DNA from: Cylindrospermopsis raciborskii Cr2010
GTDB taxonomy: Bacteria > Cyanobacteriota > Cyanobacteriia > Cyanobacteriales > Nostocaceae
Assembly (NCBI RefSeq): GCF_003367075.2
Contig: NZ_CP065936.1
Coordinates: forward strand, 180,001-212,000
Direction: 5' to 3'
Length of the DNA stretch: 32,000 nt
Numbering within the stretch: position 1 is the stretch's first letter; the number at the start of each line of letters is the position of its first letter. The notes below the pieces were generated by a model, which had not been told where the DNA came from, did no database searches, and saw nothing but the letters and a program-made list of their open reading frames with translations. Shown here piece after piece: positions 1,540-31,572 of the stretch. Made by a program: the position numbers and the translations under genes.

Positions 1540-2001
1540 TTATTTTAAATATCCCAACTGTCGTCGTGACTCAAATAAAGCTACAGCTACGCTCACTGAT
1601 AGGTTTAAGCTACGAACACCAGGTTGATCCATAGGAATGTAGAGGGTAGAGTCACAAATATCGAGAATATTTTCCGGTATACCCGTTGTTTCACTGCCAA
1701 ACAATAACCAGTCATCAGGGCGAAATTCGTACTGAATATAGTTAATATTGCCCCTGACGCTGAACCCTAGCAGTCTACCCCCTCTTTGCCGATGGACTTT
1801 GAGGAATGTGTGATATGATTCATGGTAGTTAAGTTTTACATGGGGCCAATAATCTAACCCTGCTCTTTTGAGGTAGCGGTCAGTGATTTCAAATCCTAAA
1901 GGGCCAACTAAATGCAGTTCGGTGGCCGTAGCAGCACAGGTACGGGCAATATTGCCTGTATTGGGGGGAATTTGTGGGTTAATTAAAACTACCTGAGGCA
2001 T
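1540..2001 (-). CDS. trmL: tRNA (cytidine(34)-2'-O)-methyltransferase, SpoU/TrmL family
   Basis: The 153-aa size fits. The N-terminus INPQIPPNTGNIARTCAAT...LHLVGPLGF and the C-terminal SLNLSVSVAVALFE knot motif are typical of TrmL/YibK. Confidence 0.85.
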   Translation of the reverse strand: MPQVVLINPQIPPNTGNIARTCAATATELHLVGPLGFEITDRYLKRAGLDYWPHVKLNYHESYHTFLKVHRQRGGRLLGFSVRGNINYIQYEFRPDDWLLFGSETTGIPENILDICDSTLYIPMDQPGVRSLNLSVSVAVALFESRRQLGYLK

Positions 2002-2092: not shown

Positions 2093-3253
2093 TTAAGCAA
2101 TTGGGGAGGAACACAATAACTTGCTTTCTAGTTCTTTTTCCCGTTCGTGAGTACTAACTACCGCTTGTTTGATGACTTGCTGAATGTCTATTCCTACTTT
2201 GTGTAATTGTAGCCACTGCTGGGCTTCATTACCTTCCCGTAGTATTTTCTTTAAGGGGGAGAGAAAACAACTAAATCCTTTTTGTTTGGCTATTTTCCAC
2301 ACTTGTTCATACAACTGACTAATCCATTCTCTGGCTATAATAATACTACCATCTTGCCAGTGCTGTAACTTAGCGTCTAAACTGAATTTGGCTGCTGCCA
2401 TTTCGTTTTTATTTGTTAGGGTAATTAAATCATCCAATGAAAATTCGCTCTGTTTGAGTGGATCTATGTTATCATTCTCTATTATTTGTAACAGTCTTGC
2501 CTCTAGTAAAGCAGTAATTGCTAACAAAGAAATGGGATCTGTCACTAAGTCACAAATTCGCAATTCTAATCGGTTCAAATTATAGGGACGGCGATCGCCA
2601 TTAGGTCTAACGGATGTCCATAAATGGCGCACATTCCTCATAGTACCTGCTTCTAACTGAGACTCTACCCAGTTGATATGATGTGTATGACTAGTAAACA
2701 GAGGTACATAATTGGGGGTTTGAGGGAATAGTCCCCATCGTGTGGAATGATAGCCAGTAGCTTGACCATTTAAAAAGGGTGATGAAGCACTCAGTGCTAA
2801 AAATAGAGGAGCCTCTAAACGAATAACTCGACAAGCTCGCATCAAAACTTCCGGATCTGGTATACCAACATTAATATGCACACTAGCAGTTACTACCTTT
2901 GTGCCATAGGTTTGCTCAATGTAATCATGATATGGGTTAGTAATATCAGAGCGATAAAATCGGTCGCCACCTCCCAGGGATAAGGTACTTCCCGGAATTA
3001 GCGTATATTTATTTAATTTATCCAAGTTAGACAAATTATCTAAATACTTTCTTAAGCGTTGTCGAGGAAGCAGGAGGTTGCACAACTGATATTCATAGCT
3101 AGTGGATGGGGGAGTGATATATTCCACATTACGACTATCTGGTTCTCGCATAAAACCTTGTAGTTCTGAAACAATACGATCGGAGAGACCGACAATATCA
3201 CCCTCAGAAGTACCGGTATATATTTCAATTTCAAAGCCTTTTGTTAAGACCAC
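2093..3253 (-). CDS. gshA: glutamate--cysteine ligase, cyanobacterial/GCS2-type
   Basis: 386 aa with a GTG start and AAGGAG 8 nt upstream. The motifs KGFEIEIYTG, NVEYITPP, VTASVHINVGIP, LALSASSPF and LELRICD match my recollection of the carboxylate-amine/glutamate-cysteine ligase family 2. Confidence 0.7.
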   Translation of the reverse strand: MVLTKGFEIEIYTGTSEGDIVGLSDRIVSELQGFMREPDSRNVEYITPPSTSYEYQLCNLLLPRQRLRKYLDNLSNLDKLNKYTLIPGSTLSLGGGDRFYRSDITNPYHDYIEQTYGTKVVTASVHINVGIPDPEVLMRACRVIRLEAPLFLALSASSPFLNGQATGYHSTRWGLFPQTPNYVPLFTSHTHHINWVESQLEAGTMRNVRHLWTSVRPNGDRRPYNLNRLELRICDLVTDPISLLAITALLEARLLQIIENDNIDPLKQSEFSLDDLITLTNKNEMAAAKFSLDAKLQHWQDGSIIIAREWISQLYEQVWKIAKQKGFSCFLSPLKKILREGNEAQQWLQLHKVGIDIQQVIKQAVVSTHEREKELESKLLCSSPIA

Positions 3254-3295
3254 GTTATTTTGCTCCTTGGCTCTTTTAGATAAATTGTATCAAAC

Positions 3296-4138
3296 TTAAC
3301 GATTTTTGTCATCTAAGAGAAAATTAATCGTTTCTTGAGGTAAATCACATAATTCTGACAGAGAAATTCTACCTTCATCTAAAAAATAGCCAACCCTAGT
3401 GGATGCTGCTGGCAAAATTCGCTTACCACTGCGAATCTGTATCTGAAACTTATGCTCTGTGACGTCAAACACCACAAACAGTGATACTAACTTCCAAATC
3501 ATTTGAGTTGGTGGTAAGATTTTAAAACCCGTGACTATTTTCCCCGTCTCTGGTAGATGAAATGACAAATGAGAACTTTGGATAATTTCTTGTATATCTG
3601 TTAAGGTTAATACAGAAGTGTCCAAACTACCATCTTCCAAGTTGAGCAACAAGGACAAGTCTGGTAAATGCCTGGGCACGTCATGATTAAAAGCTTCCGT
3701 CGTCAGAGTAAATTTCCGCTCCAGAATATCTGTATTAGCGTAAATGTGTACATTGTAAGCTGGTTGAGGAACAGTTCCTTTTTCATAGAATAATCTACCT
3801 TCTTGAGTAACCGTGATTGGGGTTTGAAATGCCAAAGTTTGTAGAGATTGAAGAACAGAAATTGTACTGTGGACGAATACAGGGTCTAGAGCCAAAATTG
3901 CTGCCAACTCATCTGGTGTTGGTGCGGGTTTAAATTCTATTGCTGCACGAATAATAAACTCCTCCAAAACATTAAATGGGCGAGATTCCTTAATGGTTAG
4001 CTCTAGGGAATTTTGATACAAACTATAGCGAAATTGACGAGCAGCAAAAACGGACAAATTGGGATTTTTAATTTCAATTTCGCCGACCATGGTTTTCAGA
4101 TAGGGATCAATATTTTTATTCAAAGAAGTGGGAAACAT
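3296..4138 (-). CDS. hypothetical protein with a winged-helix-like central region; downstream partner of the giant helicase
   Basis: The track ORF is 3296-4195. I prefer ATG 4138 (MFPTSLNK...) because GGAGG lies 8 nt upstream. That start overlaps the helicase stop (4116-4118) by 23 nt. The segment FNVLEEFIIRAAIEF..PTPDELAAILALDPVFVHSTISVLQSLQ...ITVTQEGRLFYEKG reads like a MarR/wHTH fold. I cannot assign the beta-rich C-terminal ~150 aa. Confidence 0.7.
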   Translation of the reverse strand: MFPTSLNKNIDPYLKTMVGEIEIKNPNLSVFAARQFRYSLYQNSLELTIKESRPFNVLEEFIIRAAIEFKPAPTPDELAAILALDPVFVHSTISVLQSLQTLAFQTPITVTQEGRLFYEKGTVPQPAYNVHIYANTDILERKFTLTTEAFNHDVPRHLPDLSLLLNLEDGSLDTSVLTLTDIQEIIQSSHLSFHLPETGKIVTGFKILPPTQMIWKLVSLFVVFDVTEHKFQIQIRSGKRILPAASTRVGYFLDEGRISLSELCDLPQETINFLLDDKNR

Positions 4139-7100
4139 CAAAGAAACCTCCATGACGACGAACAATATTTGCGACTTGTGAATACATACCACCAACTACA
4201 CCGAGATTTTTGGTAAATAAATCATGACATCCAACAATTATTAGTAATTCTTGAGCGCGAGAAAAAGCGACATTAACCCGTTCTGGTTTTTTGGCAAAGC
4301 CCACATCTCCTCGTTCATTATTTCTTACCATACTCACAATAACCACTGGTCTTTCCATCCCTTGAAACCTATCTACTGTTCCAGTTCTGATATGTAATGA
4401 AGGAAAAAGTTCTGGAGTTAGACGCTCTTCAATTTTTCGTAACTGAGCTCCATAAAATGTGATTACGGCTATTTCCTTCTTGGGTTTTCCATTGGCTATC
4501 TTTTCCCACCAATTATCTTCAAATTGTTGACAGATTTTTTGGATCACGTCTATTTCCGCCATATTAAAAAAAGATGTGCCTAGCTGTTGTTCTTGAAACT
4601 TCTTTTCTTTGGGCATTTTTACCCAAATTAAATGGTCTTTTGGTCGCAGTAGAGTTCCTGCTAAGTTGTGGGCCCGTTTGATATCAGCTTCTAAGATACC
4701 ACATTCCAATTTCCCATGATAAAACTGATTAATTGCTCCCATAATAGTAGGGTGCATTCGATATTGGGTATTTAGCATTTGCTTAATGCTATCATCTGCT
4801 TTTTCAAACTGGAATTTAAATAGAGATTCCTCCACAAATCCAATTTCTTCTCTGGAGTTTTCCATTGTTTGAGCAACTTCCTCAACCGTATCGCTATCAA
4901 TCATGGGTGGTAGTTGGCGATGGTCTCCCACCATAACTAATTTTTTCGCTTTTAATGCGGGAATAAGTAATTCCGGTGGTGTGCATTTACTCACCTCATC
5001 AATAATCACAACATCAAAATATTTGAACTCTTCTGAGAAGTTATAATTTGCAGCTTGCACGCAAGTAATACCAACAACGTTAGCATTATCCAAATAAATT
5101 TGTCGTAGATCGTTGCTGTCTCTCTCAGAGGGTTGACGCAGTTTGGCTACCCAATCCTGGATAAATTGTTGATATTTACTTAGATAATTTTGTTGATTTT
5201 CTAGTTCCTGATGCCAAATATCAAATCTTGTTTTTATCTGATCTAGAAAATCTAAATTTAATAAATCTGTTTCTGGGTTTTTCGGTTTTAGTTTATCTGG
5301 TAGATCTTGTAAATGAATATCCCACCACTTTATTTCTCTGATTAAATCGTGGGGTATATCAGTTCCTAATTTTGTGGACATTTCTTCTAATTGGTCTTTT
5401 GCTTTCTCTAGTTTGCGCCATGATATTTCACAGTTTTGGGTGATTTTGATTAATTCTTCTGGCAATCCTTCTTGAATTTTAGCAAACAGGTCTACAGGAT
5501 TTAGTCCCGACTGCAAATTGTCTAGATTGGTGATGGAATTTTCCCATAGGTTAACCTGCTGGGTAAATTCTGGCTCTCTTTCCCAAATAGTTGCTGGTTT
5601 GGCTAGACATTCTTGGGTAATATTTTTTAATTTCGGAGGCAAATTTTTCTGCTTATATAGTTGTTTTAAAATTACCACAACTTGTTCTAGCTGATTTTTG
5701 ACATTCTCCTTAGATTTATCTACCATAGCTTGAGCTTTGGTAAGTTGTTCCGAATTCACTTTCTGCTGGTCTATAATTTCCCGTGATTCTTCTTTGGGCA
5801 AGTTATTTCTTGAATTATTTAAATTATTTATTTGTGCCTCCGTTTCTTTTTTTAGTTTGAGAATGCATTGCCGAGAATTGGTCAGAACCACATCTATTAA
5901 TTCTTGAGTAATATAATGGGCTGTAGCTTGAGAGCTATTCAATGTGTCTCTACTGTAGGTCTGTTCTAGTTGTACTAACCAGGATTGAGTGCTTTCAACT
6001 AGAATTTGCCTTTGTTTGTTACTCAAAAATTGATACTTCTTAAACCGTTGATAGATTCCTTGCCATTTTTGGCGATCGCCTTTTTGCAAAAGCAGGAAGT
6101 GTTGACTAAAATGTTGTTGTATAAACTCACTAAAATAATACTGTTTTCCCTTGACATTAGAGCATTTAGCACTAACTTCATAGGACATGGCTTTGATTAG
6201 AGCTTGCCATTCTGGTTGTTTTATTTGAGAATTTTTAGGGAGTATTGGCAACTGCAACTGATGGGCAAACATTAATAGTCCTAAAGGTAGATTCAGCATT
6301 TCTTCGGTTAGCAATACCTCAGAGGTTTGGCTATTAACCACTAAATCATAAATATGAGCAGAAGCATTCTTTTTCCATTCTTGAATAGCATCAATAATAT
6401 AGTTAATCTCTCGCTGACGATTCTCCCAGTCTTTGATACTTGTTTGTGCAGTTTTCCCCAAACTGCGATCTTGGGGAGGGAATTGCTTTTGTAATTGTTG
6501 TAAAGTTCCAGAATGCTTGTGAAAAACCTTGACCATTTTCACCAGATCGGCCATGGCCATGGTTCCGTCATAAGCATAACTAAATGTGGCTTGGAATCCC
6601 TCAATTTCCTGAGCTATATTTTCCTGTAACCATAGAGATAAGCTAAATATATCATCTTCAGGACAACTAATTCCTAACTGCTCCATATAATTTTTAGCTT
6701 GGGCCACTTTTTTCTGGAAACTTTTTGATAGATTGCCAGATAGATTATTTTCCACCCCATGGATTCTTATTCGCGATAATGTTTTCCTGATTTCCAAATT
6801 ATGACTGCTAATATTTTTCGTTCTCTTGGGTTGATTGAGAATATTCTCTAAATCAACTATTAGAGATTCCATATCCTGTTTATCCTGAATTAATTGGCTG
6901 TAAACCCTTTCTTCTTCCTCAAAAATACTATCTAGCTTGCTCTTTTCTGCTTTTAATTTTTGCTGTTGATAATTAAACTGCTTTATCGAATTATAATACT
7001 CCCTGAACCGTTCATAATTTGTCAGTAATCCTTGAAGAACCTGGATATTTTCCCAACGCTGATAAAGATTATTTTCACAGTCATGGGCGGTATTTTCTAG

Positions 7101-8492
7101 CCATCTTCCAATTACTTGGTCTTCCAGAAATGGTTGTCCTTCCTCTCCTACCTTTTCTGCTTTTCCTTTTCTCACCGCACGAATAGCTGGACTATGTACT
7201 AGCCGACTTAACGCGTTGTCAACTGCCAAATTAGCTTGGGAGGTAATTAAGGTACGACCACCACGCAAAGCTACTTGATAGCAAATTTCCGCTATCACCG
7301 TGGTTTTACCAGTTCCGGGAGGACCCTGAATCAGAACTAAATCCTCAGCAGAAAGCACCTTTTCCACGGAAGCTTTTTGTCCAGGATTGGCCGCAGGTAA
7401 TAATAAATCCTGAGATTGGAGCTTGATGGTTTTTTCAATTGGTCTTGCTTGGGAAGCATCAAACAGAAAATCTCCTAGATAGGGATTTTGAGTACGACCT
7501 TGTTTTAACTGCTCTAATGCCTTTTCTTTGCGTTGAATCTGTTTAATATCACCAGCAGCATCAAAAAACAAGTATCCCTTTGTTGGTAATTGATAATTTT
7601 CAGTTGCCATATACTCTATCAGATCTTGTTCTAGTCTGATATGAATAATGTTTCTTTCTAAGTCTATCTTTTCAATGGTTCCCAATTGACGACTGGTGCG
7701 ACGGATTTTTTCTGTAGGTATAACATCCGAAAATTTAATCTCCTGGTTTTTTGCTTGTCTTACCCTTTCCCAAAAATTATCCTCATTTATATAGTTCTCT
7801 TCATCTCCATCTAGGGTAGCTGAGTTAATATTAATTTTTAATGCAATTTCTCTTTGCTTTAAATCATAGTAGGAATTCACAAAATTGACACAAAATTGTC
7901 TAGCTTTGGCTACTCGCTCTTCTACTTTTAAGAATGCTTTCCACGCCCGCAATTGCTCTTCCGTGGGAACATGATTTCCACATATTGGCATTTTGACTAT
8001 TTGTGCTAAAGTCTTAGGTGGAATATGTACTGGTTCATAGTGATTAGGAACTAGTTGTAAGTTTAATGGAACAGCATAAGCGTCTTTTTTACCTCTTGCA
8101 ATTGGTAATAAATAAGTAGAGAGAATTTTTAAACCACCGTTACCATTTTTTTGCAGTGCTGCTCTTAAACCTAAAGTCTTGTCAAGTTCTTTTAATCTTT
8201 TTGGTAGTGTAAATTCACTTTCATCTGTAGCTATGATTAAATCTAAAATTTCTTCTTCTGTATCCCTCACATTACCTTGGCGACGAATATAAAACAGGCA
8301 TTTTTGTTTCCCCACGCATTCAAAAATGAGTTCATTAGCTCGGTCTTTTTTTTCTCTAAAGTTTGAATATGATTTAACTCTTTCTTGCCCTTCAAAACTA
8401 CGAATTAACCCATCTATTGTGCAATTTAATAGGCTATATCCCCAGATTTGTGACTGATTGATCTGTGACTGATTTTTGACTGAGTTTGTCAT
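4116..8492 (-). CDS. 1458-aa Upf1-like (AAA_11/AAA_12, COG1112-type) SF1 helicase with unassigned N-terminal region and a very long insertion in the helicase core
   Basis: Walker A is LIQGPPGTGKTT (aa 390-397, nt ~7300-7325) and motif Ia is TSQANLAVDNALSRL. Motif II VVIIDEVSK appears only at aa ~1165 (nt ~5000). It is followed by LVMVGDHRQLPP (III), NTQYRMHPTI (IV), VDRFQGMERPVVIVS (V) and VNVAFSRAQELLIIVG (VI). Confidence 0.9.
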   Translation of the reverse strand: MTNSVKNQSQINQSQIWGYSLLNCTIDGLIRSFEGQERVKSYSNFREKKDRANELIFECVGKQKCLFYIRRQGNVRDTEEEILDLIIATDESEFTLPKRLKELDKTLGLRAALQKNGNGGLKILSTYLLPIARGKKDAYAVPLNLQLVPNHYEPVHIPPKTLAQIVKMPICGNHVPTEEQLRAWKAFLKVEERVAKARQFCVNFVNSYYDLKQREIALKININSATLDGDEENYINEDNFWERVRQAKNQEIKFSDVIPTEKIRRTSRQLGTIEKIDLERNIIHIRLEQDLIEYMATENYQLPTKGYLFFDAAGDIKQIQRKEKALEQLKQGRTQNPYLGDFLFDASQARPIEKTIKLQSQDLLLPAANPGQKASVEKVLSAEDLVLIQGPPGTGKTTVIAEICYQVALRGGRTLITSQANLAVDNALSRLVHSPAIRAVRKGKAEKVGEEGQPFLEDQVIGRWLENTAHDCENNLYQRWENIQVLQGLLTNYERFREYYNSIKQFNYQQQKLKAEKSKLDSIFEEEERVYSQLIQDKQDMESLIVDLENILNQPKRTKNISSHNLEIRKTLSRIRIHGVENNLSGNLSKSFQKKVAQAKNYMEQLGISCPEDDIFSLSLWLQENIAQEIEGFQATFSYAYDGTMAMADLVKMVKVFHKHSGTLQQLQKQFPPQDRSLGKTAQTSIKDWENRQREINYIIDAIQEWKKNASAHIYDLVVNSQTSEVLLTEEMLNLPLGLLMFAHQLQLPILPKNSQIKQPEWQALIKAMSYEVSAKCSNVKGKQYYFSEFIQQHFSQHFLLLQKGDRQKWQGIYQRFKKYQFLSNKQRQILVESTQSWLVQLEQTYSRDTLNSSQATAHYITQELIDVVLTNSRQCILKLKKETEAQINNLNNSRNNLPKEESREIIDQQKVNSEQLTKAQAMVDKSKENVKNQLEQVVVILKQLYKQKNLPPKLKNITQECLAKPATIWEREPEFTQQVNLWENSITNLDNLQSGLNPVDLFAKIQEGLPEELIKITQNCEISWRKLEKAKDQLEEMSTKLGTDIPHDLIREIKWWDIHLQDLPDKLKPKNPETDLLNLDFLDQIKTRFDIWHQELENQQNYLSKYQQFIQDWVAKLRQPSERDSNDLRQIYLDNANVVGITCVQAANYNFSEEFKYFDVVIIDEVSKCTPPELLIPALKAKKLVMVGDHRQLPPMIDSDTVEEVAQTMENSREEIGFVEESLFKFQFEKADDSIKQMLNTQYRMHPTIMGAINQFYHGKLECGILEADIKRAHNLAGTLLRPKDHLIWVKMPKEKKFQEQQLGTSFFNMAEIDVIQKICQQFEDNWWEKIANGKPKKEIAVITFYGAQLRKIEERLTPELFPSLHIRTGTVDRFQGMERPVVIVSMVRNNERGDVGFAKKPERVNVAFSRAQELLIIVGCHDLFTKNLGVVGGMYSQVANIVRRHGGFFDVSHFFE

Positions 8493-14759: not shown

Positions 14760-14980
14760 GTTTCAATCTCCTATGGAGATAAGTGTGACATACTCCACAC
14801 ACTCCCTTACAGGTGAGTGTGGGCTTCTCAACGACTCTTCTATGAAGACATTGATTGAGCTTTGAGGGCGTGTGTCCCACGCGCCTTTATATTTATAGCC
14901 GCATTTAGATCCCGGCACAAGCTGACCTTGCAACTAGGGCAATTGTGCGTTCTTTCTGATAGCGGCTTTTTGACTTTGTG
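14760..14980 (-). ncRNA. predicted TnpB omega-RNA (reRNA) scaffold overlapping the tnpB 3' end and right end
   Basis: Established knowledge: TnpB guide RNAs come from the tnpB 3' end plus the RE. Seen here on the minus strand downstream of the TAG stop: hairpin CACACTC-ACCTGTAAGG-GAGTGTG (about 14795-14818), then hairpin ATCTCC-ATA-GGAGAT, then TTGAAAC ending at 14760. That ending resembles the 3' ends of CRISPR repeats. The 5' limit is a guess. Confidence 0.35.
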
Positions 14981-16015
14981 TCCACAGTTAGAACATTCTT
15001 GGCTCGTACCGTTTGGATTTACAGCTATCACTTTCAAGCCAGCATTCTCGGCTTTGTTTGAAAGTATGGTGATGAACTGTCCCCAACCAGCATCGTTAAT
15101 ACTTTTAGCCAATCTTGTTTTAGCAAGTCCTTTTATATTTAATTTTTCAACAGCTACTACGTCATACTTTTTGAGTAGATTATTAGCTGTTTTGAATTGG
15201 AAATCTTTTCTAGTATCAACAACTTTCTTGTGTAGAATACCCAGTTTTTTAATCGCTTTTTTACGGCGATTAGAACCTCTCTTCCGACGAGAGACACGAC
15301 GTTGCGCAGATTTTAACTTGCGTTCAGCTTGGCGTAGAAACTTAGGTGCGGCAATTCTTTCACCGTCTGAGGTGACAATAAAATCAATCAATCCGACATC
15401 AATACCAACAATATTATTAGCATTAAAATCAGGCTTAATTGTGGGAACTGTTTTGTCGTCAAGACTTAGAGTTACATAATACCCGTCTGCTTTTTTAGTG
15501 ACAGATACAGTTTTAATTTGAAACCCGTCGGGAACTTGACGATGAACAATTACTTTAACATCGCCTATTTTTGATAGCGTAATCTTGTTATTGACAAAGT
15601 GATGTTGTTTGAATTGAGGAAAAGTAAATGTTTTATATTGTCCCGTACTTTTAAATCTAGGTCTACCAGACTTTTTGCTGTTGCTATCACCTTTTAACCA
15701 TCGGTCAAAAGCTAACTCAACTTTCTTTGCGACTTCCTGTAGCACCTGAGAATGAATCTCTTTGTACCAAGGACGGTCTTTTTTAAGTTGAGTTAATGAT
15801 GCTTTTTGGTTGTAATAATTAGGTTGCTCTTTGAGTTCTGGTAAATGACAAACGAATATGGAACATCTATTAATAGGGGAACGATTTTGTTCATACCAAT
15901 CAAACCGTTGAGCCAGCAAATAATTGTATTGATAGCGCAGCATTTCTAGCGTTTTATCAATCTTTTCTGCTTGCTCTTTTGTCGGTTTAATTTTGTATTG
16001 ATAGGATATCCGCAC
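14840..16015 (-). CDS. tnpB: RNA-guided endonuclease TnpB (IS200/IS605 family accessory protein)
   Basis: 391 aa with a GTG start. The N-terminus YQYKIKPTKEQ is typical. RuvC-I is GIDVGLIDF, RuvC-II is VVAVEKLNIKGL, the zinc finger is CSNCGH...CPSC, and RuvC-III is CRDLNAAINI. The catalytic D-E-D triad appears intact. Confidence 0.92.
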   Translation of the reverse strand: MRISYQYKIKPTKEQAEKIDKTLEMLRYQYNYLLAQRFDWYEQNRSPINRCSIFVCHLPELKEQPNYYNQKASLTQLKKDRPWYKEIHSQVLQEVAKKVELAFDRWLKGDSNSKKSGRPRFKSTGQYKTFTFPQFKQHHFVNNKITLSKIGDVKVIVHRQVPDGFQIKTVSVTKKADGYYVTLSLDDKTVPTIKPDFNANNIVGIDVGLIDFIVTSDGERIAAPKFLRQAERKLKSAQRRVSRRKRGSNRRKKAIKKLGILHKKVVDTRKDFQFKTANNLLKKYDVVAVEKLNIKGLAKTRLAKSINDAGWGQFITILSNKAENAGLKVIAVNPNGTSQECSNCGHKVKKPLSERTHNCPSCKVSLCRDLNAAINIKARGTHALKAQSMSS

Positions 16016-23450: not shown

Positions 23451-24242
23451 GTGCTGACCAGTTTACAAAATCCTCTAGTTAAGCAGATCCGTAAGTTACA
23501 CTCCCCTAAGGAGAGACATAAACAACAGTTGTTTGTGTTGGAGGGAACCCATTTAATTACAGAGGCTTGTAGTGTAAATTACCCGTTGGAAACGGTTTGT
23601 TGCACTATGGATTGGCAAAATTCCCATTCGGAATTGTGGCAAAATGTTTGTAATGCTTGTCATCGTACAGAAATAGTCAGCCAAGAGGTTTTAGCAGCTA
23701 TGGCCACCACGGTCCAACCGGATGGTGTGGTGGCCATGGTCAAACGTTGTGAGGATCACCCCATTCCCATGACGGGGTTGGCTCTAGCTCTGGAAACTAT
23801 TCAGGATCCAGGCAATTTGGGAACTATTATCCGTACTGCTGCTGCTGTGGATGCTTCCGGTTTATGGTTAAGTAATGATAGTGTGGATTTAGACCATCCT
23901 AAGGTTTTGCGGGCTTCTGCTGGCCAGTGGTTTCGCTTAAAAAAGCAGGTGAGTCACAACCTAAAGGACACTGTACAAGATTGTCAACGAGGAGGTATGC
24001 AAGTGGTTGCTACCCTACCAACCGCTGAGTTAACCTATTGGCAAGTGGATTGGTCTTTACCCAGTCTTATTTTACTGGGCAATGAAGGTGCTGGTTTATC
24101 AGATGAATTGGCAACAATGGCAAATATACAAGTTAAAATACCTCTTAGCCCTCAAGTTGAATCCTTAAATGTGGCTATATCTGCCTCTTTAATATTATAT
24201 GAGGCGCAGCGACAAAAAACTTGTGGAAAAAATACAAATTAG
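23451..24242 (+). CDS. TrmH/SpoU-family RNA 2'-O-methyltransferase (RlmB-like)
   Basis: 263 aa with a GTG start. The N-terminal substrate-binding region is NPLVKQIRKL. SpoU motifs are IQDPGNLGTIIRTAAA, LLGNEGAGLS and ESLNVAISASLILYE. Confidence 0.85.
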   Translation: MLTSLQNPLVKQIRKLHSPKERHKQQLFVLEGTHLITEACSVNYPLETVCCTMDWQNSHSELWQNVCNACHRTEIVSQEVLAAMATTVQPDGVVAMVKRCEDHPIPMTGLALALETIQDPGNLGTIIRTAAAVDASGLWLSNDSVDLDHPKVLRASAGQWFRLKKQVSHNLKDTVQDCQRGGMQVVATLPTAELTYWQVDWSLPSLILLGNEGAGLSDELATMANIQVKIPLSPQVESLNVAISASLILYEAQRQKTCGKNTN

Positions 24243-24260
24243 TATTTGACAAGAAAGAGA

Positions 24261-24827
24261 ATGAGTCAGTTCTTGATTAGGACTTTTACTAGTCTCAGTA
24301 TGTTGGTAGGGTTTATGGTAATATCAGGTTGTAACATGTCCTTATTTGAGAATACAAATATTAAAGACGTTGTAGAGAAAGTAAGTGATGGAGACACATT
24401 GATATTAAGAGATGGTAGTGGAGAAAAACACAAAGTACGACTGGGTTGTATAGATGCACCAGAGATACCCCATTCCCATAAGCAAAAGAGGAGTAAAAAA
24501 AGGCGGGATATGAATCAGTTTAATTGGGGGGTAAGGGCAAAAAATCGTCTGGCACAATTGATTAAAAATTCAGGGCGTAGGGTGAAAATAAATGTTGTTG
24601 ACCAGGACGAATATGGTAGAAAAGTTATAGAATTGCGGTTGAGAGATGATACTTTAGTGCAAGAAGTTTTATTGACAGAAGGCTTGGCAAAAGTCCATCC
24701 GGAATACATGAAACTATGTAGTAGTAAAGATATTATGTTACAGGCACAAACCCAGGCCCAAAGACAAAAAATAGGAATTTGGGGTGATGATGAATTTATT
24801 AATCCCTGGGAATATCGCAAACTATAG
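24261..24827 (+). CDS. thermonuclease (staphylococcal-nuclease-like) family lipoprotein
   Basis: I prefer ATG 24261 over the track TTG 24246. A lipobox-like VISGC follows the hydrophobic segment. SNase motifs are present (DGDTLILRDGSGEKHKVRLGCIDAPE, DEYGRKVIELRL, LLTEGLAKV). Confidence 0.8.
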   Translation: MSQFLIRTFTSLSMLVGFMVISGCNMSLFENTNIKDVVEKVSDGDTLILRDGSGEKHKVRLGCIDAPEIPHSHKQKRSKKRRDMNQFNWGVRAKNRLAQLIKNSGRRVKINVVDQDEYGRKVIELRLRDDTLVQEVLLTEGLAKVHPEYMKLCSSKDIMLQAQTQAQRQKIGIWGDDEFINPWEYRKL

Positions 24828-27984: not shown

Positions 27985-30438
27985 ATGTTTGAACACTTCA
28001 CATCCGAAGCCATTAGGGTAATTATGTTAGCGCAGGAGGAGGCACGCCGCCTGGGTCATAACTTTGTCGGCACAGAACAAATTCTCCTGGGTTTAATAGG
28101 GGAAGGAACAGGCGTTGCGGCGAAGGTTCTGACAGATTTGGGTGTCACCCTCAAGGATGCGCGTCGGGAGGTTGAAAAAATTATCGGTAGGGGTTCTGGT
28201 TTCGTCCCGCCCGAAATCCCTTTTACACCAAAAGTCAAGAGTCTATTTGAGCAGTCTTTTAGAGAGGCTCACGGTCTTGGTCACAACTACATAAATACAG
28301 AACACTTATTGTTAGGATTAACTGATGCGGGAGAAGGGGTTGCAGCCAAGGTGTTAAAGAGTCTTGGGATTGAACTGCAGACAGTACGCAGCAGAGTGAT
28401 GAGTATATTGGGTGAAGATAATAGAGTGGTTGCTGGTCGTCAAGACAACCCCAGACGCAACCAGAATCTTAGTATAGAAGAATTTGGACGTAACCTCACC
28501 AAGTTGGCCCAACAGGGGAGGTTAGATCCGGTAGTGGGTCGACAAAAAGAGATTGAACGCACCGTACAAATATTGGGTCGTCGCACCAAGAACAATCCTG
28601 TGTTAATTGGTGAACCCGGGGTAGGGAAAACCGCAATTGCCGAGGGTTTAGCTCAACGGATTGTGAACCAGGATGTTCCTGAAATATTGCTGAATAAACA
28701 GGTAATTAGTCTGGATATGGGCTTGCTGGTTGCGGGAACACGCTTCCGGGGAGATTTTGAAGAGCGTCTGAAAAAGGTGATGGAAGAAATTCGCTCCGTC
28801 GGCAATATTATCTTGGTGATTGATGAAATTCATACCATCGTGGGTGCTGGCGGTACGGAAGGAGGTTTGGATGCGGCTAACATACTCAAACCCGCCCTGG
28901 CCAGGGGTGAACTACAATGTATCGGTGCCACCACTTTGGATGAGTATCGGAAGTATATTGAGCGGGATGCAGCTTTAGAAAGACGTTTTCAACCAATTTT
29001 GGTAGGGGAACCATCAGTAGCAGAAACTATAGAAATCCTTCGAGGTCTGCGCAGTGCTTACGAGCAACATCACAAAGTAACTATTTCCGATGATGCAGTT
29101 ATTGCTGCAGCTGAGTTATCAGATAGGTACATCAGCGATCGCTTTCTCCCTGATAAAGCCATAGACCTAATAGATGAAGCTGGTTCTCGGGTAAGGTTAA
29201 GGCACTCCCGAATCATTGATAATAAAGAGCTGAAACAACAACTGAAAAATACTAGCCAGGAGAAAGCGGAAGCAGTAAGAGTTCAAGACTTTGGCAAGGC
29301 TAGTAAACTGCGTCAGGAAGAGCTAGATTTACAAACCCAACTAGCGATCGCACAAAATTTGCCCAAGATTACCATTCCCCAGGTAGACGAAGAGGATATT
29401 GCTGAAATAGTAGCCTCCTGGACGGGAGTACCTGTGAATAAACTGACCGAATCTGAATCTGAGTTGTTGTTGCATCTGGAAGATACCCTGCATAAAAGAC
29501 TAATTGGACAGGAACAAGCAGTCACAGCAGTTTCCCGTTCTCTTCGTCGCGCCCGAGTGGGGTTAAAAAGTCCTAATCGTCCTATAGCTAGTTTTATCTT
29601 CAGTGGACCTACAGGGGTAGGCAAAACTGAACTGGCTAAGGCTTTAGCAAGCTACTTCTTCGGTGCGGAAGATTCCATGATTCGTTTAGATATGTCCGAA
29701 TACATGGAAAGCCATAATGTTTCCAAATTGATTGGTTCACCTCCAGGTTACGTAGGCTACGATGAGGGTGGACAACTGACGGAGGCTGTAAGGCGTAAAC
29801 CCTATACATTGCTGCTATTTGACGAAATTGAGAAAGCACATCCCGATGTGTTCAATATGTTACTGCAAATCCTAGATGACGGTCATCTTACGGATGCTAA
29901 AGGTAGGAAAGTGGACTTCAAGAACACCCTAATTATCTTGACATCCAACATTGGGTCTAAGGTAATTGAAAAGGGTGGTATGAGTTTAGGGTTTGAATTT
30001 GATAATCAAGCCAACGCTAGTTACAATCGCATTCGCAATCTAGTCAACGAAGAACTTAAGTCCTATTTCCGTCCTGAATTTCTCAATCGAGTTGATGAGA
30101 TTATCGTCTTCAGTCAGTTGAATAAAGACGAGGTCAAAGAAATTTCCCAGATCATGCTTGAGGAAGTTGCTAAGCGTCTCCAAGAGAAAGGGATTAAGTT
30201 AGAGGTGACAGAAGCATTTAAAGACCTAGTAGTTACGGAAGGCTATGATCCTAGTTATGGTGCTAGACCATTACGTCGGGCCATAATGAGACTATTAGAG
30301 GATTCCTTAGCGGAGGCCATTTTGTCTGGTGAGATTAGAGAAGGTGACCAGGCCATTGTGGATGTTGATGACGATGGTTTGGTGAAGGTGAAGAAAGCAG
30401 AAACCCGTGACTTGGTACTAGTTAGTGCTCCTGCTTAG
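27985..30438 (+). CDS. clpC: ATP-dependent Clp protease ATP-binding subunit, ClpC-type
   Basis: 817 aa. It has a double Clp_N repeat ([20 protein letters not shown]; [16 protein letters not shown]) and two AAA+ modules ([15 protein letters not shown]; [15 protein letters not shown]). A UVR-like middle motif ([16 protein letters not shown]) and an LGF ClpP-docking loop (GGMSLGFEF) are also present. Confidence 0.93.
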
Positions 30439-30513: not shown

Positions 30514-31572
30514 CTAACTATCTCCAAAGTCCATGGTCTCAATAAACTCTAAAATATTCTGCTTCATGTCCTCAGCTTCATCTAGAATGGAACCTCGAAG
30601 GTCACCAGTAAAAAATGTTCGTTGACTGCTAACTATATACAGAAAATTGCCATTAGTGAATGTCAATAAGCCACGGTACGCATCTAGTCTTGTTGGGTTA
30701 CCATTGTTTTCCCTTTGGGAAATGCTTGAGCCTTTAGGCATGTCCACTAATACATAATAATAACTACTTAAAGTATCTTGGAGTAAGCTATCCTGTAGGT
30801 ACTCAGTATACTTAATTTCTGCGCCCGGGATATGTTTTAAAATAGCTTGAGGTAAATATCTTTCAATTAAAACAGAGTGGAGATATGTTTCTTGTCCTTG
30901 TTCCTCCATAGTTTCTAAATGTTCTTTAGTAAGGGGATAGTAATCAATTCTGATAAAAGTTCCCCCACTGTCAGAGAAACCAACCATTCCCTGTTGACTA
31001 ACAATTTTTCCTCCTCGTTCTGATGTTACAGGTACAACAACTCTGAAATTATTTGAAGGAGATTGGTATATTTCCTGTCCTAATTCATCTACTATGATTT
31101 CCGGTTGTTTTAATTCTTGTGGATCTTCTATTACTGCTATTACCTCTCTAATAACTTCCTCAGCTTCTATATCCTGCAATTCTAAGGCTTGTTGTAGTTG
31201 TTTGATGTATGACTGTTTTTCCTTGGGTATGGTCATACTCTCTTCTTCCAATAGCATTACTACACCAGCAGCAAACGCATCCAAAACTATATCACTTTTT
31301 AAACTTGTATTGGCAGTATTAAATAGGGAACCTAATCCTTCCTCCTGAGCAATAATTACTAGTCTATTGACCATTTCTAAGATTTCCTCTTGGGAGTACC
31401 CATCAAAAACCTGAAATTCTAGTAAGATATCCGCTAAACTTTCCGTGTCTATATCTTCTATAGTACAGTCAACAGCTGCACTAATAATTGCTATAGCTGC
31501 TACTGCTTCCTCTGAATTTAGGGATTCAGTTGTAAATGCTGAGGAATTAAATATTTTATCATACTTGGTCAT
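30514..31572 (-). CDS. hypothetical protein (acidic helical N-terminal half, unassigned C-terminal half)
   Basis: The ORF is 352 aa and uninterrupted. N-terminal ~150 aa (EEAVAAIAIISAAVDCTIEDIDTESL...EEILEMVNRLVIIAQEEG) looks loosely like a TerB-type helical bundle. The C-terminal ~190 aa is unrecognised. Confidence 0.65.
   Translation of the reverse strand: MTKYDKIFNSSAFTTESLNSEEAVAAIAIISAAVDCTIEDIDTESLADILLEFQVFDGYSQEEILEMVNRLVIIAQEEGLGSLFNTANTSLKSDIVLDAFAAGVVMLLEEESMTIPKEKQSYIKQLQQALELQDIEAEEVIREVIAVIEDPQELKQPEIIVDELGQEIYQSPSNNFRVVVPVTSERGGKIVSQQGMVGFSDSGGTFIRIDYYPLTKEHLETMEEQGQETYLHSVLIERYLPQAILKHIPGAEIKYTEYLQDSLLQDTLSSYYYVLVDMPKGSSISQRENNGNPTRLDAYRGLLTFTNGNFLYIVSSQRTFFTGDLRGSILDEAEDMKQNILEFIETMDFGDS

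Follow-up and report, generated by a model that had tools for sequence, protein, structure and literature searches.

A Mokosh type I-like helicase operon that has probably lost its PLD nuclease domain on the chromosome of Cylindrospermopsis raciborskii

In a 32-kb stretch of the Cylindrospermopsis raciborskii Cr2010 chromosome (32,000 nucleotides of contig NZ_CP065936.1, called the window below), two overlapping genes on the minus strand encode a large Upf1-like helicase and a protein of 280 amino acids (aa). Comparison with profile models and with orthologues indicates that the pair is very likely a derivative of a Mokosh type I (MkoA + MkoB) operon in which the MkoB-like protein is without its nuclease. 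The pair and its borders are as follows:

4116..8492, minus strand: MkoA-like, Upf1-family superfamily 1 (SF1) helicase of 1458 aa with an ATG start (open reading frame (ORF) list, PADLOC, Pfam, motifs)
3296..4138, minus strand: 280-aa protein, predicted MkoB N-terminal module (adaptor) that lacks the PLD nuclease (PADLOC, orthologues, AlphaFold2 (AF2) model)
4116..4150, minus strand: coupling junction with GGAGG, ATG and helicase TAA, 23-nt overlap (sequence)
3254..3295, minus strand: 42-nt spacer to gshA, putative site of the PLD deletion (sequence)

The helicase and its overlapping partner

The small gene lies in a maximal ORF at 3296..4195 (minus strand), in which the ATG at 4138-4136 yields the 280-aa product. 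The junction reads, on the minus strand, ...CAT GGA GGT TTC TTT GAT GTT TCC CAC TTC TTT GAA TAA. GGAGG (4150-4146) is located within the HGG codons of the helicase, 7 nt before the ATG at 4138, and the helicase TAA occupies 4118-4116, which gives the 23-nt gene overlap. Orthologues of the 280-aa protein begin at the equivalent Met (MF..S), and a helicase/small-gene overlap of 20-23 nt is conserved in related PLD-less genomes. A promoter/terminator pattern scan, whose counts showed no excess over shuffled expectation, revealed no terminator-like site between the two genes. A sequence-only reading of this DNA had proposed a coupled pair including a Upf1-like SF1 helicase with the full motif set, a best start at ATG 4138 behind GGAGG, and a partner with a winged-helix-like segment and without a nuclease domain. 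Each of these proposals held, as shown by the junction and orthologue starts above and by the motifs, structure model and PLD searches below.

The helicase carries an intact set of motifs I-VI: I (GPPGTGKT, aa 390-397), Ia (TSQANLAVDN, aa 417-426), II (IIDEVS, aa 1163-1168), III (GDHRQLPP, aa 1189-1196), a IV-like QYRMH, V (TVDRFQGME, aa 1372-1380) and VI (VAFSRA, aa 1408-1413). It is recognised by the PADLOC models of MkoA (PDLC03920, E 1e-116, 389.6 bits; PDLC03921, E 1.3e-101) and of MkoC (E 4e-33). Pfam detects AAA_12 and AAA_11 (5e-41), the latter split between aa 368-424 and aa 1016-1200. Among solved structures, the closest in sequence are Upf1 (5e-35), IGHMBP2 (1e-34) and DNA2 (6e-32), along with Sen1/SETX and ZNFX1. 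The AAA_11 and AAA_12 core, the motifs and an insertion in RecA1 place it among the Upf1-like SF1B helicases (Upf1/IGHMBP2/Sen1/DNA2). It is not an IGHMBP2 equivalog, since its TIGR00376 score (230 bits) is below the cut-off of 349. Its parts are:

7968..8492, minus strand: N-terminal alpha/beta domain, aa 1-175 (AF2; no Pfam/PADLOC match)
7398..7967, minus strand: long helix, beta-barrel and long helix, aa 176-365 (AF2, PADLOC)
5448..7202, minus strand: Q/L/K/E-rich insertion in RecA1 between motifs Ia and II, aa ~431-1015, roughly 500-600 aa (Pfam split, composition)
4224..4832, minus strand: RecA2 domain (AAA_12, aa 1221-1423) with motifs V and VI (Pfam PF13087, E 3.3e-48)

No Pfam, NCBIfam or PADLOC family matched aa 1-175 (to ~180). 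A Foldseek search of the PDB with the AF2 model of aa 1-365 (predicted local distance difference test, pLDDT, 82) gave nothing significant, only low-probability OB-fold and Sen1/SETX matches. A type I kinase domain or a hidden nuclease was considered for this N-terminus and found to be unsupported (no Pkinase in Pfam, no kinase-like Foldseek match). Protein searches returned homologues of the N-terminus in Nostocales, Oscillatoriales, Microcoleus, Coleofasciculaceae and Pleurocapsa, and no relatives of aa 1-175 were detected outside cyanobacteria; the matches, all of 635 aa or less, are fragments or split genes that serve for alignment rather than for claims about distribution. Many orthologous Nostocales helicases open with an IF2_N domain (PF04760, E 1.2e-8; e.g. 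L037:5518-5670), which the window clade does not have, and NCBI names some of them ‘translation initiation factor IF-2 N-terminal domain-containing protein’.

The following region, just before the ATPase core, is aligned over aa 181-363 with positions 865-1017 of the MkoA profile PDLC03921 (E 6e-7). Its predicted secondary structure (helix 178-197, strands 200-310, helix 313-330), together with the weak Sen1/SETX fold matches, suggests a Upf1-type stalk plus domain 1B. The RecA1 insertion is in part outside the MkoA profiles, over ~350-430 aa (aa ~533-924 compared to PDLC03920, ~575-1009 compared to PDLC03921). One segment of it (aa 755-879; 5856-6230, minus strand) resembles the N-terminus of a RecG subfamily, being aligned with positions 4-128 of the NCBIfam RecG equivalog model NF008170 with E 1.2e-12. 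The same match occurs in the orthologues of loci L037 (2.3e-12) and L086 (3e-11) and not in the distant relative of locus L081; the segment appears helical, unlike the RecG wedge.

The 280-aa protein has no Pfam or NCBIfam family match, and a protein database entry 100% identical to it is annotated as ‘hypothetical protein’. The PADLOC MkoB model (PDLC03922) matched it with E 3.1e-5, with aa 44-124 aligned to profile positions 16-97 of 610 only, i.e. a coverage of ~13%. Given this low coverage, automatic defence-system callers would probably not report the window pair. The AF2 model is confident (pLDDT 94.2; predicted template modelling score 0.83). From the N- to the C-terminus it shows a helix and a long beta-hairpin, then the winged helix, then a further alpha/beta region that also contains a long hairpin, and finally three helices. 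Structural neighbours in the PDB and BFVD exist for the winged helix only:

3764..3976, minus strand: winged helix-turn-helix in the adaptor, aa ~55-125 (Foldseek, profile search)

In the PDB these are MntR, MarR, DtxR and CggR (probability 1.0 over 63-73 columns, root-mean-square deviation 1.5-2.8), and in BFVD Z-alpha-type and other winged helix-turn-helix proteins; over both databases, the matches have a probability of ~1.0 over 60-73 columns, with E of only 0.03-0.1. An alignment profile of the family likewise matches MarR-type PDB chains. The family is small, with 155 clusters, many of 580-690 aa, recovered when 1.8 billion cluster representatives were searched exhaustively with a profile. 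A sequence search of the PDB found no solved Mokosh protein.

Full-length orthologues and exchange of the effector

Relatives were found in 216 species (one genome per species) and the best 80 loci were analysed. Nearly all of these are labelled Nostocales, a few records bearing generic cyanobacterial or other names, and because they were picked by similarity to the N-terminal module (N-module), decayed N-modules would be under-represented. In 61 of the 80 loci, the N-module ORF measures 587-638 aa and continues in frame into a PLD-like part. It is limited to 280-319 aa in 17 loci, none of which showed PLD-like sequence within 10 kb downstream of the N-module. Another locus (Cronbergia) has a 444-aa ORF with the HKD motif still present, and in one the ORF exits the contig end. 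The motif HxKxxxxD (typically HVKEVIVD) was found in 55 full-length loci, and the 72-sequence family alignment gives the consensus GxxHxKxxxxDxxxxxxGSxN.

The full-length orthologues score as MkoB with E 1e-25 to 1e-27, as in Tolypothrix PCC 7101 (E 2.9e-25, profile positions 15-420) and Anabaena cylindrica UHCC 0172 (E 1.6e-27, positions 16-441), and also weakly match PLDc_2, DrmC and the PLD end of MkoC. Since they carry both the N-module and the PLD, they explain the partial MkoB match of the window protein. At the place of the 42-nt spacer, orthologues hold ~1 kb encoding a linker, the PLD domain and a C-terminal tail, and the gshA start is located 1.1-1.5 kb further downstream in full-length loci. 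No PLD remnant was found in the 32-kb window (tblastn with the PLD part of locus L037, best E 4.4). These results show that the PLD-bearing form is the ancestral state in most Nostocales. As judged from these sequence comparisons, the small protein of the window is the N-terminal module of an MkoB-like protein, from which the PLD nuclease has been deleted. A -35/-10-like site (ATGACA, 17 nt, TG-TACAAT; 3284-3312, minus strand) overlaps the last codons of the small gene, upstream of gshA; by pattern match only, it may be gshA's own promoter inside the deletion junction.

The sequence-only reading could name neither the partner nor the N-terminus of the helicase and had raised, beside a housekeeping pair, the idea of an undescribed helicase-based defence system, here taken as unrelated to the named ones. 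The small protein and aa 1-180 of the helicase, both outside Pfam and NCBIfam families, would be in keeping with this idea. However, the helicase is MkoA-like, its partner matches the MkoB N-terminus, and the orthologues are complete MkoA/MkoB-like pairs with a PLD. With a named system matched, and with the conserved syntenic position described in the next section, the proposal of a new system falls and we consider it very improbable.

N-module paralogues also occur on conjugative cyanobacterial plasmids. The plasmid pC052_C of Nostoc sp. C052 (L090:5277-12025) carries, in a BREX-1 locus between pglX and pglZ, a three-gene cassette:

Gene 1: MkoA-like helicase of 1246 aa (E 2.7e-106)
Gene 2: overlapping 531-aa fusion of the N-module to DarT (PF14487, 9e-16)
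Gene 3: ADP-ribosylglycohydrolase

The N-module of this fusion (~256 residues) is 29% identical to aa 1-256 of the window protein (BLASTP E 1e-24). DarT is an ADP-ribosyltransferase acting on single-stranded DNA (ssDNA), and the arrangement has the look of a Mokosh-like cassette whose effector is DarT; we found no published description of it. By Pfam and PADLOC, DarT is present only in this plasmid paralogue and there is no DarT domain in the window protein. In a more distant relative, a 654-aa protein follows a 1520-aa helicase and adjoins a PemK/RHH toxin-antitoxin pair; the two proteins match MkoB and MkoA, respectively. Such distant relatives retain the order helicase then partner, with overlapping genes. 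A 1212-aa relative (L084:8001-11639) is composed of N-module, PLD, IF2_N and WD40. Replacement of the PLD by WD40 was considered for it and rejected, as PADLOC shows that the PLD was kept while IF2_N and WD40 were added. The strongest evidence for a helicase-coupling role of the N-module is that it precedes varied effectors, while the gene before it encodes in each case a helicase of one kind. The N-module would thus be the part of MkoB that couples to the helicase, and the C-terminal domain an exchangeable effector.

This exchangeability bears on a second explanation, in which the helicase and adaptor of the window are served by a PLD or other effector whose gene lies at a different place in the genome, making up a complete nuclease-NTPase defence. 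An adaptor that accepts both PLD and DarT could be served in this way, and in some Nostoc genomes N-module and PLD are indeed separate ORFs or proteins (stand-alone PLD pieces of 273-348 aa). Nevertheless, nothing PLD-like was detected in the window or downstream of the 17 shortened genes, and none of the 67 matches listed for the L037 PLD part was attributed to the PLD-less genera Cylindrospermopsis, Raphidiopsis, Sphaerospermopsis, Dolichospermum and Aphanizomenon. The latter negative counts as moderate evidence only, the matches listed being all of 571 aa or less, with long proteins seemingly under-reported. We therefore regard a nuclease supplied in trans as quite unlikely.

Inheritance, selection and decay in the Nostocales

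Downstream of the pair, two genes provide context and are not part of the module:

2093..3253, minus strand: gshA, syntenic downstream neighbour (NCBIfam TIGR02048, E 1e-203)
1540..2001, minus strand: trmL, syntenic downstream neighbour (NCBIfam TIGR00185, E 3e-55)

Besides these, Pfam and NCBIfam identify an SLH-domain protein, an alpha/beta hydrolase and uvrA among the window neighbours, in agreement with the gshA, trmL, SLH protein and uvrA named from the sequence alone. An IS605-family OrfB/TnpB gene (HTH_OrfB_IS605, OrfB_IS605, Cas12f1-like TNB domain; 14840-16015, minus strand) is located just past uvrA. This tnpB, ~6 kb off, is the sole mobile-element gene among the scanned window ORFs, a scan that left out the ORFs 27985-30438 and 30514-31572. 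Further away (23451-24827, plus strand), a SpoU-type RNA 2′-O-methyltransferase that has an MRM3-like substrate-binding domain directly precedes a homologue of staphylococcal nuclease of 193 aa.

Most of the 80 loci share the gene order helicase-mkoB-gshA-trmL, and this synteny bears out the alternative of the sequence-only reading, a lineage-conserved pair. The helicase is upstream on the same strand in ~70 loci and overlaps its partner in ~48 of them. In the remaining helicase-upstream loci the two genes are separated by 0.07-9.6 kb, and the intervening DNA that was inspected held unrelated genes (BASS-type transporter, Uma2-like proteins, HAD hydrolase). The gene tree of the N-module groups by genus. 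In the Dolichospermum/Aphanizomenon (ADA) clade, a 277-aa PLD-less protein follows an overlapping 1434-aa helicase, while the flanks differ, with BolA and glutaredoxin upstream and an MFS transporter downstream. Maintenance of the pair despite these changed flanks shows that the genes are linked to each other and not to gshA. Trichormus variabilis carries the same PLD-less pair. Loss of the PLD has recurred: in a neighbour-joining tree of the N-module, PLD-less forms fall into at least five separate clades:

Clade 1: the window with Raphidiopsis, Sphaerospermopsis, Anabaena azotica and others
Clade 2: Trichormus NMC-1 with A. catenula
Clade 3: Tolypothrix VBCCA with Scytonema hofmanni UTEX 2349
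Clades 4 and 5: two Nostoc groups

In clade 3, an IS605-type tnpB is located after the shortened gene.

Selection was assessed by Nei-Gojobori estimates of the ratio of nonsynonymous to synonymous substitution rates (dN/dS). Between the window and R. brookii, the values were 0.235 for the small gene, 0.156 for the helicase, 0.118 for gshA and 0.150 for trmL. Against more distant PLD-less species, with dS saturated, they were 0.15-0.23 for the small gene and 0.15-0.17 for the helicase. Close pairs gave 0.16-0.37 for the N-module in PLD-less lineages; in PLD-bearing lineages, they gave 0.11-0.48 for the N-module and 0.18-0.54 for the PLD part. Synonymous sites are saturated between genera (dS 1.2-1.9). 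The PLD loss is thus old in the window's clade, and both genes have been under purifying selection since. All eight other members of this clade, and the Trichormus/A. catenula clade, have an intact helicase in which none of the seven motifs is missing, and they keep the 20-23-nt overlap, the exception being R. brookii D9.

The junction between helicase and mkoB seems to be an insertion hot spot. In several loci (L007, L016, L018, L027, L031, L044-L047, L053, L058, L059, L062, L067 and L069), 0.8-5.3 kb of unrelated genes are inserted exactly between the helicase and the mkoB-like gene; in these Nostoc-type insertions they encode a BASS-type transporter, a Uma2/DUF820-like protein, a HAD hydrolase and a cation antiporter. 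Helicase matches are spread over ~10 kb in five loci (L017, L020, L049, L075 and L076), where the gene is apparently interrupted. Lichen-associated Nostoc (L029, L038, L039 and L088) have orphan PLD-less N-modules of 296-319 aa, with no helicase in the upstream sequence at hand. One orphan adjoins ileS, and the dN/dS of the orphans is still 0.25-0.37.

Several observations weigh against a relative of Mokosh that is still at work in the window. The locus is often damaged in other Nostocales by inserted foreign genes, interruption of the helicase or orphaning of the N-module, which indicates dispensability. In R. brookii D9, the helicase ORF (L001:5647-10023) is only 1194 aa long whereas tblastn matches cover aa 6-1458; a frameshift or stop near aa 264 may reflect a true pseudogene or an assembly error in an old draft. 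The dN/dS of the pair (0.15-0.25) is above that of gshA (0.03-0.12), and the window helicase has no Ser/Thr-kinase region. Finally, mutation of the PLD active site abolishes canonical Mokosh defence, which depends on the ATP site of the helicase as well (10.1101/2022.05.11.491447), so that a PLD-less pair may be immunologically dead.

Two explanations draw on these points. One would be that the PLD deletion killed a Mokosh-like system and left two non-functional genes heading for loss. The need for the PLD site and the recurrent decay, including the D9 break, argue for it. Such leftovers are nevertheless difficult to reconcile with ORFs that are both intact in Cylindrospermopsis, Sphaerospermopsis, Anabaena azotica, Dolichospermum/Aphanizomenon and Trichormus despite saturated synonymous sites, with dN/dS of 0.15-0.25, and with preservation of all helicase motifs and of the gene overlap. 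The pair is, moreover, retained in what we take to be one of the smallest Nostocales genomes. An inactivated remnant is therefore unlikely.

The other explanation is that the whole Nostocales family, PLD-bearing or not, is a cellular RNA/DNA-processing helicase complex, similar to Upf1 or MOV10L1-Zucchini, rather than an immune system, and that the Mokosh matches reflect shared ancestry only. Order-wide synteny beside gshA and trmL, a gene tree grouping by genus, surroundings in the window free of defence or mobile genes except for the one tnpB, and a helicase without the kinase region of type I MkoA would all suit a housekeeping machine. Individual genomes, however, often have the locus broken up or in part missing, unlike what an essential function would show. 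Close paralogues reside on conjugative plasmids, one of them fused to the DarT toxin in a BREX island, and the distant relative adjoins a toxin-antitoxin pair. Between genera, dN/dS is several times higher than for gshA (0.15-0.24 compared to 0.03-0.05), although the gap is small between the window and R. brookii (0.235 and 0.156 compared to 0.118, and 0.150 for trmL). On balance we find this explanation rather doubtful.

Taken together, these results argue with good probability for a cyanobacterial relative of the Mokosh type I operon, resident on the chromosome and passed on vertically, whose PLD has been deleted and which probably still functions. Continued function, taken by itself, is likely; any specific activity is speculative.

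Proposed role and comparison with known systems

In complete systems, the N-module would be the part of MkoB that docks on the helicase, its winged helix contacting nucleic acid, and the adaptor would hold the PLD or DarT at the helicase, so that RNA or ssDNA engaged by the 5′-3′ Upf1-like motor is attacked. Nuclease and NTPase subunits generally form complexes in such defence systems (10.1101/2025.07.10.664194) and, by analogy, helicase and adaptor may do so here. In the window, the coupled helicase-adaptor complex would still be made and would still bind to and translocate on RNA or ssDNA, without a nuclease of its own. It could act by ATP-driven remodelling or displacement alone, or pass substrates to a host nuclease. 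Its present role may be anti-phage or that of a domesticated surveillance device. As a tentative proposal, which we hold to be possible rather than probable, an effector-less Mokosh-derived complex would have been kept under selection in bloom-forming Nostocales (Cylindrospermopsis/Raphidiopsis, Sphaerospermopsis, Dolichospermum/Aphanizomenon and Trichormus) for a nuclease-independent activity, either an immunity without nuclease in which phage nucleic-acid complexes are stripped at the expense of ATP, or a domesticated RNA/DNA surveillance, with the MkoB N-module serving as a general docking adaptor for PLD, DarT or nothing.

The locus family offers a natural dissection of Mokosh type I. The first ~280 residues of MkoB appear as an autonomous, confidently folded module, and the presence of PLD, DarT or no effector behind it points to the portion of MkoB that is coupled to the helicase. 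Natural variants without an effector, in cyanobacteria amenable to genetics, provide material in which the helicase-adaptor can be tested for an activity of its own. It is unusual for a ‘defence’ operon to be syntenic across an order, and this is relevant to how immune systems settle in a lineage or are domesticated. For annotation, the analysis accounts for a ‘hypothetical protein’ in all C. raciborskii genomes, within a pair that defence-system callers probably miss. We found no paper linking Mokosh with Nostocales or Cylindrospermopsis, no description of the MkoB N-terminal module and no mechanistic paper on Mokosh type I. The mechanism of type I is still open and its complex has resisted purification (10.1101/2025.07.10.664194); order-wide synteny, repeated loss of the effector with helicase and adaptor kept, and PLD/DarT swapping are leads into it.

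Hachiman HamAB, Gabija GajAB, Nhi and Hhe are similar to the pair in that a helicase sensor or motor is coupled to an effector in one complex. They belong to other helicase clades with other partners, and none of their defining proteins was matched beyond the P-loop; the weak local hidden Markov model matches to Hhe, GajB and Nhi fall in P-loop regions. The Upf1-type SF1 core is also shared with MOV10L1-Zucchini/PLD6 of the piRNA pathway and with Upf1 of nonsense-mediated decay. At the HKD motif, the profile of the family has a weak match to PLD6 (4ggj), and a Mokosh-piRNA parallel has been proposed (10.1101/2022.12.12.520048). The window partner, in contrast, is only a winged helix-containing adaptor, and the likeness to the eukaryotic pairs concerns a possible mode of action, not membership.

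Mokosh type II (MkoC, e.g. E. coli YjhR) has a helicase of the same family, and its helicase-plus-PLD logic is found in the full-length orthologues. However, type II unites helicase and C-terminal PLD in one polypeptide, whereas here there are two genes, an adaptor stands between helicase and PLD in the orthologues, and the window has no PLD. The pC052_C cassette shares with the window pair an MkoA-like helicase gene overlapping a gene that begins with the same N-module. It differs by its DarT effector and glycohydrolase and by its position on a plasmid, in a defence island, while the window pair is chromosomal and without effector.

The closest counterpart is Mokosh type I (Millman et al. 2022). 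As in type I, the operon is composed of two genes with the helicase first, the COG1112/Upf1-like helicase is recognised by the MkoA model, the adjacent partner is homologous to the N-terminal region of MkoB, and orthologues in most Nostocales bear a PLD/HKD domain as MkoB does. The window protein differs from MkoB by the absence of the PLD and of its HxK(x4)D site. A Ser/Thr-kinase region has been described for type I MkoA (Millman et al. 2022) and is absent from the window helicase: the MkoA profile matches begin only at positions ~619/1112 and ~865/1607, and cover aa 181-363 and the helicase core. The helicase has instead a private 175-aa N-terminal domain and the large RecA1 insertion. In contrast to the sporadic, defence-island occurrence expected of Mokosh, the window locus is syntenic and vertically inherited among housekeeping neighbours, a mobile or defence context being seen in the plasmid and BREX-island paralogues. 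With the PLD absent, no kinase region and no defence island, the pair is thus an effector-less variant rather than a complete Mokosh system.

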